Part shown: piece by piece, positions 32,446 through 64,000 of the stretch
How positions within the stretch are numbered: position 1 is the stretch's first letter
How the letters are laid out: the number at the start of each line of letters is the position of its first letter
Assembly (NCBI GenBank): GCA_025677605.1
Contig: GCA_025677605.1_4110.1
From: a phage
DNA: 64,000 bases
Reading direction: 5' to 3' (one strand)
Position numbers and translations under genes: made by a program
The notes under the pieces: model-generated
Seen by the model: the letters and a program-made list of their open reading frames with translations, nothing else
The model's database searches: none
What the model was told of the DNA's origin: nothing

Positions 32446-32552
32446 ATATTACTCTCCATGTATGTTATTACAATTTCCATTATATCATAGTTAATTGGGT
32501 TGTCCCAATTATAAAATAAAAGAGAACGACGAATCGTTCTCTATATTTATTT

Positions 32553-59462: not shown

Positions 59463-60032
59463 TTATTTGTTTACAAAGAAATTACGTGCTTCTTCAAAGG
59501 TCATTGAAGTATATACTGGATTCCACGCATCGTCAACAGAAGTCAGTACTTTAACTTCCATTACATCTTGTGGTGTATAGAATTGCCATGTATTGTGATC
59601 TGGCTCATAGTTAGGGTCCAGAACAAAAACTGTTCCATCCTGACCATAAACTTGACCATCCTCGAATAGCTCACGGAAGAAGTCTTCCCCAGTAGTTGGG
59701 TCTTCGTATGCATTATAAAAACGAAAAACAACATTCTCAACATCAGTTCTGGTAGTACCATCGTCTTCATCATATTCTACCAAACGGTCCTGATGAAATA
59801 CGAGGTCAATAGCACCAATGCGAGGTTTATTATGTGGAGTTTTGATTTCTTGCTGGGAATTGAAATCAACACGTTCAGTACTGATGAATACACCACTTGG
59901 AGTAATTTCAATACCAGTGACATTTTCAGCAGAATAGTAAACCTCACACATATCATCAATGTGCATGTGCTCATGATACACTTCCATTTCAGGATTCTGC
60001 ATCAACAGTGCTGCTAAGTCTTTTGCTTTCAA
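59463..60032 (-). CDS. Hypothetical protein
   Basis: 189-aa ORF. Confidence 0.6.
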   Translation of the reverse strand: MKAKDLAALLMQNPEMEVYHEHMHIDDMCEVYYSAENVTGIEITPSGVFISTERVDFNSQQEIKTPHNKPRIGAIDLVFHQDRLVEYDEDDGTTRTDVENVVFRFYNAYEDPTTGEDFFRELFEDGQVYGQDGTVFVLDPNYEPDHNTWQFYTPQDVMEVKVLTSVDDAWNPVYTSMTFEEARNFFVNK

Positions 60033-60421
60033 TCTTCAATCTCCATAGAATTATCATCATCATAATCGTCACTTGTGTACTTAGTTTTTACCTCAATACC
60101 ATTCTCGTGAAGGTATGTGATAAAACCATTACCATAAACGAATTGATTATAGTAAATGTTTTCTTCCACATGAGTGTCATATTCATCTTCATAATATGTG
60201 GGCATTGTAACATCATGCCCTGCACTTTGCAAGTACTGGAACAACTCTTTCAGTACTACTTCAATATCACCTTCTTCTGTACCATAACAATACGCAGGTT
60301 CACCATGTGTGAATTTGAATCCTTTACAGGAAACTGTAAAAATATCACTCATACACATACCACAGTCATCACATTCATGAATTGAGCAATGCTGATGGAA
60401 TTTAATTTTTTTGATTTGCAT
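60029..60421 (-). CDS. Hypothetical Cys-rich protein (possible zinc-binding N-terminus)
   Basis: N-terminal HQHCSIHECDDCGMC cluster; acidic C-terminus. Confidence 0.55.
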   Translation of the reverse strand: MQIKKIKFHQHCSIHECDDCGMCMSDIFTVSCKGFKFTHGEPAYCYGTEEGDIEVVLKELFQYLQSAGHDVTMPTYYEDEYDTHVEENIYYNQFVYGNGFITYLHENGIEVKTKYTSDDYDDDNSMEIED

Positions 60422-60761
60422 TCAGGAAATCACCGATTTCAGTAGTTGACATTGGACTATCAGCACCATCATACCATAAAGATACATAAGGCTTAATAGA
60501 AGAAGTATCAATGCAAAGACCTTCTCGTTCACATTTAGTACTGAATTCTGTACTGTCACTTGGTTCTCCAATGAGAATATCAAACTCGTACATTGTAACA
60601 TCTTTATCAGTACTGTACACTAGCATACCATCATAAGAAATATGAAGGTTTACATCTGCTTGAAACAGACGGTCAGTGATAGATTCCCAATCTTCTCGTG
60701 GTACTGGATCTACTAAACGTGCAATAAGACCTGCTGTTATGCGATAATCACTCATAGTCAA
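60402..60761 (-). CDS. Hypothetical protein
   Basis: 119-aa ORF. Confidence 0.55.
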   Translation of the reverse strand: MTMSDYRITAGLIARLVDPVPREDWESITDRLFQADVNLHISYDGMLVYSTDKDVTMYEFDILIGEPSDSTEFSTKCEREGLCIDTSSIKPYVSLWYDGADSPMSTTEIGDFLNANQKN

Positions 60762-60784
60762 CCTCTTTTTTATAGTAAAAGAAA

Positions 60785-60812
60785 AGGAGAGTCAAAATGA
60801 CTCTCCATGTTT
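60785..60812 (-). terminator. Intrinsic terminator
   Basis: GGAGAGTCA-AAA-TGACTCTCC hairpin followed by UUUUCUUUU on the minus-strand transcript. Confidence 0.7.
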
Positions 60813-60815
60813 ATA

Positions 60816-61277
60816 TTATTCAAGATACTTAAGTTTATATAAAGTACCCTCAATGAAACTCATTATATCTTCAAGGGTATTAGTACTGCCATAGTCTTCA
60901 GCTTCTTCAAGCATAGCATGAACGTACTTACATTGTTCACAGTATTCTTCAAGAATCGGAATACACTGTTCAATTGGTGTGAACTTATAACTGTGTCCAG
61001 TACCAATTTGTAAAGCACCACGAGTGTTCATAATTCCTTCAATGAACGCATCGACATATTCTGGTAACTCTTTATACAACTCATCTAATTGTAGATGTTT
61101 TGTGTAGTGTTTACTTTGTAAATGCCAGCTATGTGCAATTGCTGGTAGTATAATGCTGTTTTCAATAAATGTCAATAGTACTTCATCATAAGCACTGTCT
61201 TCTTCAGTACAGCCAATGAAGTCCATAACATGTCGCAAGTCGTTAATATTTTCCATAAAATCTCTCCAGGGAGTCAT
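60816..61277 (-). CDS. Hypothetical protein
   Basis: 153-aa ORF. Confidence 0.6.
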   Translation of the reverse strand: MTPWRDFMENINDLRHVMDFIGCTEEDSAYDEVLLTFIENSIILPAIAHSWHLQSKHYTKHLQLDELYKELPEYVDAFIEGIMNTRGALQIGTGHSYKFTPIEQCIPILEEYCEQCKYVHAMLEEAEDYGSTNTLEDIMSFIEGTLYKLKYLE

Positions 61278-61288
61278 TCTATGTCTAT

Positions 61289-61705
61289 TTATTTGATCAG
61301 AAATGTAAATTCGGGATTCATATCTCTTATTACTGAATTACGTCTTCTATCCCATACAACTTTACTAAAATACTCGGAGTCATCACATACTATCAGTATA
61401 CAATTCCTAAGAGAACTCGTTGTGTAAGTACTTAAATCATTTTCTGTAATGAAATGAACATTCCTGTTGACTTGTACTGGATAATCTCGTTTAAAAAACA
61501 AAACTACTATAGGTCTTTCAGTACTCAATGCATTAATAAATTCAATTACACTATCATAGATTTCAGTACGGATATTATTAGTTTTTATTGTACTTATGTA
61601 ATTCTGTTTAATTCCGTACTCTTCATTGATTTGATACTCAAAAAACTTTTTAAACAATTCTTTGGTTAAATCAGATGAATTTTTAATATTCGTTGCGTTA
61701 CTCAT
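61289..61705 (-). CDS. Hypothetical protein
   Basis: 138-aa ORF directly downstream of the non-coding island. Confidence 0.6.
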   Translation of the reverse strand: MSNATNIKNSSDLTKELFKKFFEYQINEEYGIKQNYISTIKTNNIRTEIYDSVIEFINALSTERPIVVLFFKRDYPVQVNRNVHFITENDLSTYTTSSLRNCILIVCDDSEYFSKVVWDRRRNSVIRDMNPEFTFLIK

Positions 61706-62425
61706 TCACTTCGTTCTCTCGTAACTCAAGAATTCGTTTCGTTATCTACGATAACTCACTCATTCATATTAATTAATATTGTATTGTACTTTTAAAGATT
61801 GACGGGATTTGTTGAGGACATTTTCATCCCCCCGCAGGGGAATGATATTAAAAAAGAACCAATGAAGGTTCTTGATTTTGACGCTGATGGCATCGGAATT
61901 TATCGAATTGCGAATTTCTCCATATTTTGGACGGATCAAGGGTGTCCAATTTTTGGAGAACGAAAGCGGGTTGCTCTGTTTCTCTCTATCGCAGTCATAT
62001 GCAACGGTCGCAGGTATTTTCATCCCCTGCACTAAAGTACTGGAACTATTCGATCAATTCAGTACTCGTTTTACTCAAATTTTGGGTGCAACTTTCCCGT
62101 AGAAAAATTGACCGCTTGTTTTAAGTAAAACTCCCTTAGCAAATCTGGTAAGGTGCGATCCTTATACATCTATCGAGGAACTCTCTGTATGCTTATCGGA
62201 GTTCTTTATTGAGCCGTGTCGCCGTGTGATCCGTGTCTTATTTCGCGTTTGTATGAATGCACTTGGATGGTACTAACGGGTTTCTTTTGCTCATCGCCTC
62301 AGTGGGAAGGCTCATCTATCCTTTACATTTTCAAGAGAAGTAGGTTCTTCTTGTCCGTTGTTAAAACGTCCACTGACATTTTCCATTACAATATAATTAT
62401 AGCACAATATAAAGTATTGTCCCAA
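61706..62425. other. GC-richer non-coding island (~720 bp), candidate structured RNA or origin-like element
   Basis: No convincing ORF (track ORFs overlap each other, lack RBS); about 45-48% GC in sampled 60-nt stretches; three CCGTGT iterons at 62213-62240; duplicated TTTTCATCCCC..GCAGGGG motif at ~61822 and ~62013. Confidence 0.5.
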
Positions 62426-62839
62426 TTACATATAAACTTTTTTCAATTCTTTGCTGCTTCGTTCAAATACTGTTTCAATGAACTCAATATCCTGAAGAAG
62501 CTGAAGAGTACTGGCATCTGTCTCATTGCGTGACACATTTCTGTACTTTTGTTCAGGGTGATTGAATACCACCTTGACTACACTATTTAGGTCTACAAAA
62601 TTTGACGTTTTTTTCGTATAGGAAGCCTGAAGCTTAATATACTTCCCATTATCTTGTAGATTAGTTTTATGAATTAGTTCTTCAATACCTGTAAGATGTA
62701 AATAACTATCTTCTTCTTTGACAAATGTAATAGTTAACAGTACTGTCTTTTCGTCTCCCATGTCAGAGATATTTTTCACAGCACTAACAATTTCTAAGTT
62801 TGAAAAATCTAAATCTTTAAGCATTACACATATTTCCAC
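62426..62839 (-). CDS. Hypothetical protein
   Basis: 137-aa ORF. Confidence 0.55.
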   Translation of the reverse strand: MEICVMLKDLDFSNLEIVSAVKNISDMGDEKTVLLTITFVKEEDSYLHLTGIEELIHKTNLQDNGKYIKLQASYTKKTSNFVDLNSVVKVVFNHPEQKYRNVSRNETDASTLQLLQDIEFIETVFERSSKELKKVYM

Positions 62840-63180
62840 AAAGTTCTATAAGTGATAATTTCTTCTCTGGTAACAGAAACTTCATTGCACTTAACACCAT
62901 CCGTTTCATACTCGAATGGTCGTTGTGGTCGATATTCTGTTAAACCTCGTTCATACGTACAATGATAATACTTGTTCTCGTTCATGTCAAGAAAAACAAG
63001 ATCAAATTCTTCAGTAAATCGTCTATGCCCTTTACTTTCATTGCAAATGATTTTGTACTGCACATCTGGACCAAAGGTTTCAGTACTGTCATCCCATGTA
63101 CCATAGTCAGTATACACATCATCTTCATCTAACTCTGCAAGATGCCACATTAACTGTGGTAAAAAGATTTTTGATTTCAT
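62824..63180 (-). CDS. Hypothetical protein
   Basis: 118-aa ORF. Confidence 0.55.
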   Translation of the reverse strand: MKSKIFLPQLMWHLAELDEDDVYTDYGTWDDSTETFGPDVQYKIICNESKGHRRFTEEFDLVFLDMNENKYYHCTYERGLTEYRPQRPFEYETDGVKCNEVSVTREEIITYRTLWKYV

Positions 63181-63200
63181 TTATTTTCTCCATTAAAAAA

Positions 63201-63228
63201 GGACTTGATTTCTCAAGTCCCTATTATA
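63201..63228 (-). terminator. Intrinsic terminator downstream of the HNH gene
   Basis: GGACTTGA-TTTC-TCAAGTCC hairpin followed by U6 on the minus-strand transcript. Confidence 0.7.
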
Positions 63229-63233
63229 ACATA

Positions 63234-63845
63234 TTACTCATGTTTATCCAACAGCTTTTGTGCCTTTTTTAATGCTTTCATGTGTCGCCCGTACTCACGA
63301 ACATGCCACAGATGATCGTTATCCCATAGCTCTTGACGCAATCTACGTTCTTCGAGCATTTCTGGTGTAGGACGTTTACTTTCCTTCTCAATCTTATTGA
63401 AATAACGATTCATATGTTCTTCAAGAAGATTACGTCCCTTCACTTTATCAAGAAATTCATCAACTGTTTCAGTTTTATTTGAACGCAACTGATTACATCT
63501 CGCACACATAGTATTGAAGTTTGACTCCAAATCAGCACCACCTTTAGATGCAAGATGATTATGATCTACAGTCATCATAACTTCATAAAGACCACATACT
63601 GCATACACATTTAAATGCGGTTTACCATATACCGGATCACTACAGTTAGAACGTTCGATTCGAACTTCTGTAGCCTCGATGCCACAAGCAACGCACTTAC
63701 AATTCTTAACGAATGTTAGTACTTTTTGTGGAAAGTATCTGAAAGTAATACCATTATAAGTATAACGTTTCATTTTGGTACTAGTATGATTGAGTTCATC
63801 TAGTAAACTCAATTTGGTTACATAATAAACATGATATTTAGACAT
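63234..63845 (-). CDS. HNH family endonuclease
   Basis: Cys-rich CKCVACG, DHNH (MMTVDHNHLASKGG) and downstream CARCNQLRSN as in HNH homing endonucleases. Confidence 0.8.
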   Translation of the reverse strand: MSKYHVYYVTKLSLLDELNHTSTKMKRYTYNGITFRYFPQKVLTFVKNCKCVACGIEATEVRIERSNCSDPVYGKPHLNVYAVCGLYEVMMTVDHNHLASKGGADLESNFNTMCARCNQLRSNKTETVDEFLDKVKGRNLLEEHMNRYFNKIEKESKRPTPEMLEERRLRQELWDNDHLWHVREYGRHMKALKKAQKLLDKHE

Positions 63846-63846
63846 A

Positions 63847-64000
63847 CTATTCCTTAACTTTTATGTTAACACGAATATTTTGGTCTTGGAGTTTGCGAAT
63901 TGTATCAATTAGTGCATCATATCTCAGTGCACATTCATTGTACATGGAATCCCAACGCGTCAGAACGTTAAGAATTTCATCACCAGCATATCCTCTATTA
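63847..64000 (-). CDS. Partial CDS (C-terminal ~50 codons; continues beyond window)
   Basis: Open minus-strand frame from the window edge to TAG at 63849-63847, just upstream of the HNH start. Confidence 0.4.
   Translation of the reverse strand, partial: NRGYAGDEILNVLTRWDSMYNECALRYDALIDTIRKLQDQNIRVNIKVKE

Follow-up and report, generated by a model that had tools for sequence, protein, structure and literature searches.

A predicted large, multiply pseudoknotted non-coding RNA encoded in about four copies by Rak2-like jumbo phages

Bacterial and phage RNAs that are both large and intricately folded, among them OLE, GOLLD and ROOL, are uncommon, and the discovery of each class has led to new biochemistry. 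Among phage elements, the R-loop origins of T4 combine a middle-mode promoter with an unwinding element. In PA5oct, a jumbo phage related to the one considered here, RNA-seq has defined four long non-coding RNAs (lncRNAs), ncRNA001-004, of 236-619 nucleotides (nt) (PMC7318152). The subject of this report is positions 61706-62425 of a 64-kb stretch of phage DNA (contig GCA_025677605.1_4110.1), referred to below as the window, which is 99.3-99.9% identical to Escherichia phage A4 (ON286972.1). Phage A4 belongs to the genus Asteriusvirus and is a Rak2-like jumbo myophage of 355 kb. With a probability of roughly 80%, 61706-62425 contains on its minus strand an independent gene whose product is a large, highly structured non-coding RNA (~540-590 nt). 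The RNA belongs to a four-copy family and is proposed to act in trans as a folded molecule.

Comparison at the sequence level establishes a set of four co-oriented paralogs with a conserved promoter and no conserved reading frame, in which at least 14 predicted helices, including four pseudoknots, are kept by compensatory changes. The structured body of the RNA is predicted to run from ~62389 to 61846 on the minus strand (~544 nt, counted from the predicted start through the last position of the terminator T-run). The comparison drew on 31 distinct full-length phage members, forming 15 clusters below ~78% identity, taken from IMG/VR and A4; an E. coli copy, phage RaK2 and, among the matches listed, at least 17 metagenomic members were added later. 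Helices were counted on a 32-sequence alignment in RNA orientation. The 14 helices comprise 69 pairs, and 98.4% of the 2124 cells are paired, against 76.2% in shuffles and 34-44% in slid controls. The preliminary description of this stretch had proposed a comparative alignment for compensatory changes, and 58 of the 69 pairs have changed on both sides. The covariation score is 0.579, compared with 0.170 for shuffles and 0.05-0.09 for slid controls, and none of 500 shuffles reaches any of these measures. Compensatory substitution in the RNA is thereby beyond the controls. Four pseudoknot crossings are supported: P3 with P1, P5 with P4, P9 from the loop of P8, and P11 with P12 and P13. RaK2 and divergent metagenomic members, which stood outside the derivation of the structure, keep the fold with new compensatory pairs.

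The fold is predicted to consist of two domains, all on the minus strand. The 5' pseudoknot region of domain 1 (62296..62376) holds P1 (62370-62376 with 62299-62305; 6 of 7 pairs covary), P2 (62333-62335 with 62321-62323; 3 of 3), which closes the invariant loop GAAAAUGUA (62324-62332), and P3 (62309-62311 with 62296-62298; 2 of 3), which crosses P1. The middle of the domain (62131..62293) comprises P4-P7 together with the invariant GAUAGA and UAAGGGAG (62131-62138). Here P4 (62289-62293 with 62210-62214) is crossed by P5 (62217-62219 with 62166-62168), and two hairpins follow, P6 (62200-62204 with 62178-62182) and P7 (62160-62164 with 62149-62153). P7 is supported by strand-symmetric helix analysis and is blurred by an alignment shift, the alignment being imperfect around P7 and P16.

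Domain 1 also contains a variable hairpin region (62214..62275). Three plus-strand copies of CCGTGT, which had been taken for iterons, fall at 62214-62236 and read as three copies of ACACGG in the RNA. The repeats are present (62214-62219, 62222-62227 and 62231-62236, three of the ten plus-strand copies in the 64 kb), but they are an insertion limited to one paralog lineage, c1, and the iteron role is not upheld. Other members carry CACGGCRAYRCGGC and a different variable hairpin at this site. In most members the hairpin is a shorter, different one, and its conserved part is restricted to CACGGC..GCGGC, closed by an invariant CCGU/ACGG pairing.

Domain 2 (61902..62065) is a multiply pseudoknotted core formed by P8-P14. 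The P8 hairpin (62058-62065 with 62037-62045) covaries at 9 of 9 pairs. Its loop supplies one strand of P9 (62048-62054 with 61902-61908, ~150 nt downstream), in which 7 of 7 pairs covary and 99.6% of cells are paired. P10 (62028-62030 with 62010-62012) is a variable hairpin, and P11 (62001-62005 with 61970-61974) crosses both P12 (61989-61993 with 61909-61913) and P13 (61982-61986 with 61962-61966). P14 pairs 61957-61959 with 61917-61919. Optional or variable segments are the CCGTGT-bearing hairpin, the P14 extension, the inter-domain region and the terminator hairpin; variable peripheral elements are typical of large RNAs.

The preliminary description had also pointed to a CCCC-GCA-GGGG hairpin and to a partial duplicate of it some distance away. 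The hairpin is found at 61830-61840 and is conserved in every member. The partial duplicate, TTTTCATCCCCTGC, exists at ~62018-62031 and, being 12 nt long, matches no better than expected by chance (BLAST E = 5.6); the second TTTTCATCCCCTGC falls in the loop and 3' arm of P10. Long-range pairing of the duplicated TTTTCATCCCC motif was rejected as resting on a chance-level match without covariation.

The palindrome AGTACT occurs 127 times in the 64 kb, compared with 19 +/- 4 copies expected from dinucleotide-preserving shuffles. The copies are dispersed through coding DNA at ~1 per 500 bp, and two of them (62036-62041 and 62061-62066) form both arms of helix P8. The excess could reflect a modification motif or a protein-binding motif.

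The final structure contains 68 G·U against 10 A·C pairs when read on the minus strand, which identifies the minus strand as the one carrying the RNA; the plus-strand reading implicit in the preliminary description is not sustained. On that strand the predicted RNA has, at motif level, its own promoter and terminator. The promoter is a phage middle-type promoter, TTGGGACA-N16-TGCTATAAT (62396-62425), composed of a -35-like element TTGGGACA (62418..62425; family consensus TG[A/G][A/G]AC[A/G]) and an extended -10 element TGCTATAAT (62396..62404), from which a transcription start at ~62389 is predicted. It contains the best sigma-70-type site in 61500-62700 and the sole good one, TTGGGA-18-TATAAT with TG, matching at 10 of 12 positions on the minus strand. 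The motif TG(A/G)(A/G)AC(A/G)-N16-TGnTATAAT lies upstream of essentially all 31 members, and TGnTATAAT, or a variant with one base of the hexamer changed, is found in 30 of the 32 members at a constant distance from the first conserved helix. The genes upstream finish in their own terminators immediately ahead of the RNA promoter.

A "divergent RpoD-like" promoter with the -35 sequence TGAAACG has been described upstream of DNA-synthesis genes in phages CBB and GAP32 (PMC5259590), and the promoter motif of the RNA matches this class. The strict form TGRRACR-N13-15-TGnTATAAT occurs at 11 sites in the 355-kb A4 genome, all on one strand, one of them at 32466-32507 of the window (minus strand). 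These sites are found ahead of the late sigma factor, the DNA polymerase region, SSB, primase, exonuclease and two of the RNA genes, and look like a compact regulon of middle genes that would include the RNA genes.

The c3-type copies show a distinct arrangement. Their -10 TATAAT stands 3-4 nt before a covarying terminator-like hairpin with a T-run that closes the upstream gene (L003:15057-15110 and L010:2792-2845). Transcripts from the c3-type promoter would miss the 5' arm of this hairpin, so that terminator and promoter would overlap.

The RNA body is predicted to end in the intrinsic terminator P15 (AGAACC..GGUUCU, 61855-61872) followed by UUUUUUAAUA, together spanning 61846..61873; 5 of 6 pairs covary, and this is the sole terminator-like site in 61500-62700. 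The hairpin and its U-run are found in most members. Just before it lies the small hairpin P16 (61878..61894; GAUGC/GCGUC), whose 3' arm is box 2, GCGUCAA (61878-61884). Across lineages the P16 stem changes from GAUGC/GCGUC to GACGA/UCGUC to UUCG/CGAA, in an imperfect alignment register. Beyond the terminator, the 3' module (61799..61840) begins with the C4/G6 hairpin CCCCUGCGGGGGG (61830-61840), continues with GAUGAAAAU..CAAAUCCCGUCAA and ends in box 1 (61799-61805), which reads CAAAUCNCGUCAR and repeats box 2. The C4/G6 hairpin and box 1 are present in all members and, within A4, solely at the four family loci. The conserved repeats amount to two (Y)CGTCAR boxes and an inverted partial copy. 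Boxes 1 and 2 vary together with the 5' arm of P16 from lineage to lineage (GUCAA, GUCAG, CGAAG), and this concerted change points to a protein recognition site or to alternative pairing. Taken together, P16 with box 2, the terminator, the C4/G6 hairpin and box 1 most likely form a region of 3'-end formation and protein recognition.

Box 1 is followed in all copies by an AT-rich stretch of 40-50 bp, in a genome that is AT-rich as a whole. In the window this stretch and the adjoining "module B" occupy 61706..61798. Module B contains GNA-loop hairpins (GUUAUC-GUA-GAUAAC) and ..AAUUCUUGAG..ACGAAGUGA, and reaches up to the next start codon at 61705. Paralogs have it in conserved form, as do distant lineages; the E. 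coli island copy described below has not kept it.

The stretch has no credible open reading frame (ORF), as the preliminary description had stated. The longest ORFs within 61706-62425 are 87, 78 and 76 amino acids, the longest ORF in any frame of 44 family members ranges from 40 to 88 codons (median 58), and no ORF is conserved in position across these 44. In ortholog pairs, indels of 1, 2, 4 or 5 nt are numerous, and these lengths are not multiples of three. The GC content is raised, in the direction reported; the size had been overstated, GC amounting to 39.4% across 61706-62425 and to 42.1% in the RNA body (61796-62389), not to 45-48%, against 36.4% for the window average and 33-34% for the flanks. 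Most GenBank records have no feature at the RNA loci, and some carry small coding sequences (CDSs) judged to be spurious.

Known RNA families do not account for the element. The covariance-model scan that had been proposed for it was carried out with Rfam 15 over 60000-64000 on both strands; at E<=10 it gave 22 matches, all at noise level, with no intron, HEARO or ribozyme family among them. The window contains no transfer RNA (tRNA) or transfer-messenger RNA genes. When the RNA was compared by blastn with 5426 complete E. coli genomes, no similarity to a host RNA gene was found, the island copy being the sole match, and literature searches yielded no description of the element. To the extent of the databases and papers searched, the RNA family would thus not be a known one, being without an Rfam match or a literature record. 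Nor were the observations seen that had been named as counting against a functional element, a conserved coding frame and a lack of conservation in relatives: no ORF is conserved, and the element is kept across Rak2-like phages. The stretch was rightly flagged, and one of the candidates offered for it, a structured non-coding RNA, is strongly supported by the covarying pairs, the pseudoknots and the predicted promoter and terminator; the CCGTGT repeats, the duplicated motif and the neighbouring HNH gene are incidental.

Signature motifs and a covariance model agree that the A4 genome holds exactly four copies, at ~65, 126, 206 and 321 kb, the copy at ~126 kb being 61706-62425. All four share one orientation, and each lies in a CDS-free gap of 650-900 bp. 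The covariance model, R1, was built on domain 2 with RaK2 outside the training set; it recovers exactly the 4 copies in A4 and also RaK2 (106 bits), whose member is found by nhmmer at E = 7e-47. Orthologs are shown by sequence similarity throughout the Rak2-like jumbo phages. Identity over the region is ~78% in the 121Q/PBECO4 group and ~70% in phages of Cronobacter, Pectobacterium, Serratia, Erwinia, Yersinia and Xanthomonas, and a core of 115 nt still finds a match in RaK2 and K64-1. A scan of bacterial species genomes with a loose pattern gave no member among the 120 loci listed, which is weak evidence of absence.

The paralogs differ in setting. In the window the genes surrounding 61706-62425 are all on the minus strand: a DUF7325 protein (62426-62839) is the upstream neighbour of the RNA gene and a phrog_35272 protein (61289-61705, with its start codon at 61705) the downstream neighbour, each a complete, separate gene. 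The c2 paralog sits between two genes of the opposite strand and is antisense to both, and c4 follows a sigma-70-family gene in both A4 and RaK2. Such syntenic positions in distant phages argue against recent mobility. No gene is common to the neighbourhoods of the family loci examined, and the downstream genes are unrelated between loci.

A full-length copy of the RNA was found by blastn in 2 of the 5426 complete E. coli genomes, LR-29-1 and EEC_W5, within the same island. In LR-29-1 it lies at ~3478970-3479590 of NZ_AP027515.1 and scores 478 bits with nhmmer and 132 bits with the covariance model. A promoter of the same type stands upstream, and the terminator, the C4/G6 hairpin and box 1 are retained. 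The gap around the copy, 1.4 kb without CDSs, belongs to an integrase-borne island inserted next to ffs, the integrase being disrupted by IS3. The island also holds the candidate defence system PDC-M45 (DuOB, DUF488, mSLOG-DUF4326). The phage-like part of the island copy extends from the RNA body through box 1 and no further; its closest phage copy, that of Serratia phage BF, is ~80% identical. This marks the RNA gene as a transferable unit in its own right. A phage origin of the island proteins is not supported, the DUF4326 domain being the sole one with a homolog in A4.

On the preferred reading, the RNA would be transcribed from ~62389 in the middle phase of infection, alongside the genes for DNA polymerase, SSB, primase, exonuclease and the late sigma factor; the timing is suggested by the promoter type that these replication genes share with it. 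It would fold into a compact two-domain tertiary structure and would act in trans, as a protein-binding scaffold or the core of a ribonucleoprotein (RNP), or as a catalytic or self-assembling RNA, and neither through pairing with a target nor as a site on DNA. A trans-acting folded RNA is favoured for three reasons: features of the tertiary type are dense, the single-stranded stretches that never vary are long, and the bacterial island has kept the RNA body by itself. A bolder version, which is tentative and on balance doubtful, would make this a new class of ornate, multiply pseudoknotted ~550-nt RNA (catalytic, RNP core or self-assembling scaffold) that is needed in Rak2-like genome replication, has diverged into four paralogs and has been captured by bacteria in a defence island as a decoy or sensor.

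Several points weigh against the preferred reading. Transcription is suggested by sequence motifs, and the 5' and 3' ends are predicted positions; we infer the trans-acting role from architecture. The terminator hairpin is missing from the c3- and c4-type paralogs, and strong conservation extends ~150 nt past the terminator, through the C4/G6 hairpin, box 1 and module B. On these two facts the predicted 3' end is tentative, and the 3' module may belong to the RNA or may be a DNA site. The concerted changes in box 1, box 2 and P16 fit a protein-binding site in DNA or RNA at least as well as they fit folding. In addition, the structure was derived and counted on overlapping alignment data; circularity is made less likely by the slid controls and by the sequences kept out of the derivation.

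The alternative that survives best, and which is nevertheless unlikely, is a replication-origin module. The transcript would then be a pre-primer, as in ColE1 RNA II or the R-loop origins of T4 (oriF/oriG), and the 3' module, with its G6/C4 run, (Y)CGTCAR boxes and AT-rich stretch, would be the site of an RNA-DNA hybrid and of initiator binding, giving four origins per 355-kb genome. The promoter class is shared with replication genes, the copies are spread along the genome and co-oriented, the phage encodes an RNase H, and the AT-rich stretch after box 1 occurs in all copies. The repeated boxes and the palindrome change in concert, as protein-binding sites do, and the bacterial island copy could be an origin mimic. 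The ~550 nt between promoter and G/C-run would also be similar to ColE1 RNA II, which is reportedly of comparable length in the work of Masukata and Tomizawa. Against this, four pseudoknots and long invariant single-stranded stretches exceed the needs of a primer precursor, and in most members an intrinsic terminator stands ahead of the supposed hybrid site. No initiator gene is consistently adjacent, the cumulative GC skew has no inflection at the element, and T4-type origins lack sequence conservation, whereas conservation of this element matches that of the flanking proteins. The origin-like or protein-binding element of the preliminary description is not supported for the CCGTGT repeats, which are not conserved, and may hold for the 3' module. 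The repeats do not support an iteron-type origin, as the triple CCGTGT is limited to the c1 lineage and the two (Y)CGTCAR boxes with their inverted partial copy are suggestive without being an iteron array. Were the origin explanation true, these would be the first defined origins for the Rak2-like phage group.

A giant cis-acting leader or attenuator is improbable. In such an arrangement the structured domain would respond to a signal and control read-through of P15 into the 61289-61705 gene, with module B as its 5' untranslated region. The layout of promoter, structured RNA, terminator and next gene is what this predicts, module B abuts the start codon of that gene, and box 1 and box 2 could pair alternatively with the P16 5' arm. 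The other loci speak against it: no co-oriented gene lies downstream of c2, the terminator is missing from the c3 and c4 types, genes downstream are unrelated from one locus to another, and the E. coli island has kept the RNA without module B or a phage gene. The size is a further objection, as ~540 nt with four pseudoknots is, to our knowledge, several times bigger than any known riboswitch or leader.

It is very improbable that the functional RNA lies on the plus strand, antisense to the flanking genes and transcribed from a TTGACG box at 61800. TTGACG resembles a -35 hexamer, RNAalifold energies are similar and undecided between the strands (-147 vs -153 kcal/mol), and RNAalifold's own plus-strand prediction has many G·U pairs. 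These plus-strand G·U pairs are mostly invariant terminal pairs, whereas on the minus strand G·U alternates with A-U and G-C at internal helix positions, for example in P8 and P13. The helices were first defined by a criterion symmetric between strands, and in these symmetric helices plus-strand A·C mismatches, which are G·U on the minus strand, exceed plus-strand G·U by ~3:1; the count of 68 to 10 in the final structure favours the same strand. The minimum free energy z-score is -2.96 for the minus strand and -1.76 for the plus strand. No acceptable -10 follows TTGACG and no plus-strand terminator is found in 61500-62700, and the conserved promoter is on the minus strand.

Slimmer again is the chance that the element is a remnant or free-standing derivative of a self-splicing intron or mobile ribozyme linked to an HNH gene, the form in which a degenerate group I intron had been suggested. 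The element is multi-copy and pseudoknotted, the phage is rich in HNH genes, one copy has moved into a bacterial island, and GAGCCGUGU has a superficial similarity to the 5' half of domain V of group II introns. The nearby HNH endonuclease was correctly identified (63234-63845, minus strand; 203 amino acids, HNH domain only), but its link to the RNA does not hold. It is two genes away, and of 32 other family loci examined an HNH gene occurs at two, the 121Q ortholog and one other, and at none of the remaining 30. No group I or group II intron, HEARO or ribozyme was matched in Rfam at E<=10. The element lies outside genes with its own promoter, between two genes that are each separate and complete; c2 is antisense to the genes on either side, and the paralogs hold syntenic positions in distant phages (c4 after the sigma-factor gene in A4 and RaK2). 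The "AGC" triad, which is invariant in group II domain V, varies here (GAGCC, GUGCC, CAGCC): GAGCCGUGU is found in some members, others having GUGCC or CAGCC, and the enclosed hairpin is a variable 30-80 nt against the 34 nt of domain V. Two related candidates were also rejected. HEARO or an IscB omega-RNA, which would lie directly upstream of an IscB gene (RuvC+HNH), is contradicted by the HNH-only protein two genes away, by the 30 other loci out of 32 that have no HNH gene and by the missing Rfam match; for RNase P there is likewise no Rfam match, and the CR-II and group II domain V resemblances are on inconsistent strands or at variable positions.

A decayed or unconventional protein-coding gene, for which annotators' calls of A4_511 and RaK2 ORF245 could be cited, has a negligible chance given the lack of a position-conserved ORF, the longest frames of 40-88 codons, the non-triplet indels and the compensatory changes across helices. 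The two GenBank "hypothetical protein" CDSs lie inside the RNA gene (A4_511 at 61953-62102 of the window, plus strand; ORF245 at L255:1367-1573) and are not conserved; both are probably spurious.

Elsewhere in the A4 genome, annotation splits the large terminase subunit into two CDSs, A4_29 and A4_30, with a 275-bp gap between them (~230972-231246), which may be an intron or a frameshift. Another stretch of 2 kb is without annotated CDSs (L002:4140-6137) and is not a member of the RNA family.

The preferred reading, a stand-alone gene for a folded RNA, has practical consequences. The RNA sits in cultivable E. coli phages (A4, 121Q, PBECO4 and others), within reach of genetics, RNA-seq, chemical probing and cryo-EM; it has four natural paralogs per genome, unusually clean covariation and a promoter of the replication-gene class, and is therefore tractable. 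The annotation of dozens of GenBank jumbo-phage genomes is corrected, in which the 0.7-kb gaps are blank or filled with spurious small ORFs. The E. coli defence-island copy provides a natural "experiment".

Among known systems, T4-type group I introns are likewise phage-borne, pseudoknotted RNAs of a few hundred nt with an HNH gene in the vicinity. Unlike them, the present element is not inserted in a gene, has its own predicted promoter and terminator, shows no P3-P9 core recognised by Rfam and is not linked to the HNH gene. ColE1 RNA II and T4 oriF/oriG have features in common with the predicted RNA: a structured, non-coding transcript of ~550 nt, a promoter class of replication genes, a G/C-run and AT-rich DNA near the 3' end, and the presence of RNase H. 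The fold is far more elaborate and better conserved than in these origins, and a terminator precedes the putative hybrid site. No promoter for an antisense regulator was found in 61500-62700.

The lncRNAs of PA5oct are also four ORF-free loci, in a phage related to the Rak2-like jumbo phages. PA5oct ncRNA004 (~619 nt) is antisense between minus-strand genes, like c2, and has a C-rich/G-rich end hairpin resembling C4/G6. Homology with ncRNA001-004 was not detected: the best nhmmer --max match had E = 0.08 and covered that hairpin alone, and covariance model R1 gave none at E<=1. For the PA5oct RNAs no structure or paralogy has been reported, unlike the RNA family described here.

The RNA family differs from ROOL, GOLLD and OLE in having no Rfam 15 match at E<=10, so that the resemblance is one of kind only. 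Its carriers are enterobacterial jumbo myophages, as against Firmicutes and their prophages, and it is further set apart by four paralogs per genome, a dedicated middle-type promoter, a 3' module with repeated boxes and the lack of tRNA genes in the window. Like ROOL and GOLLD, it occurs in phages, stands out from its surroundings by a higher GC content and has no assigned function. In common with all three classes, it would be an RNA of ~500-600 nt with many covarying helices, pseudoknots and long invariant single-stranded stretches.

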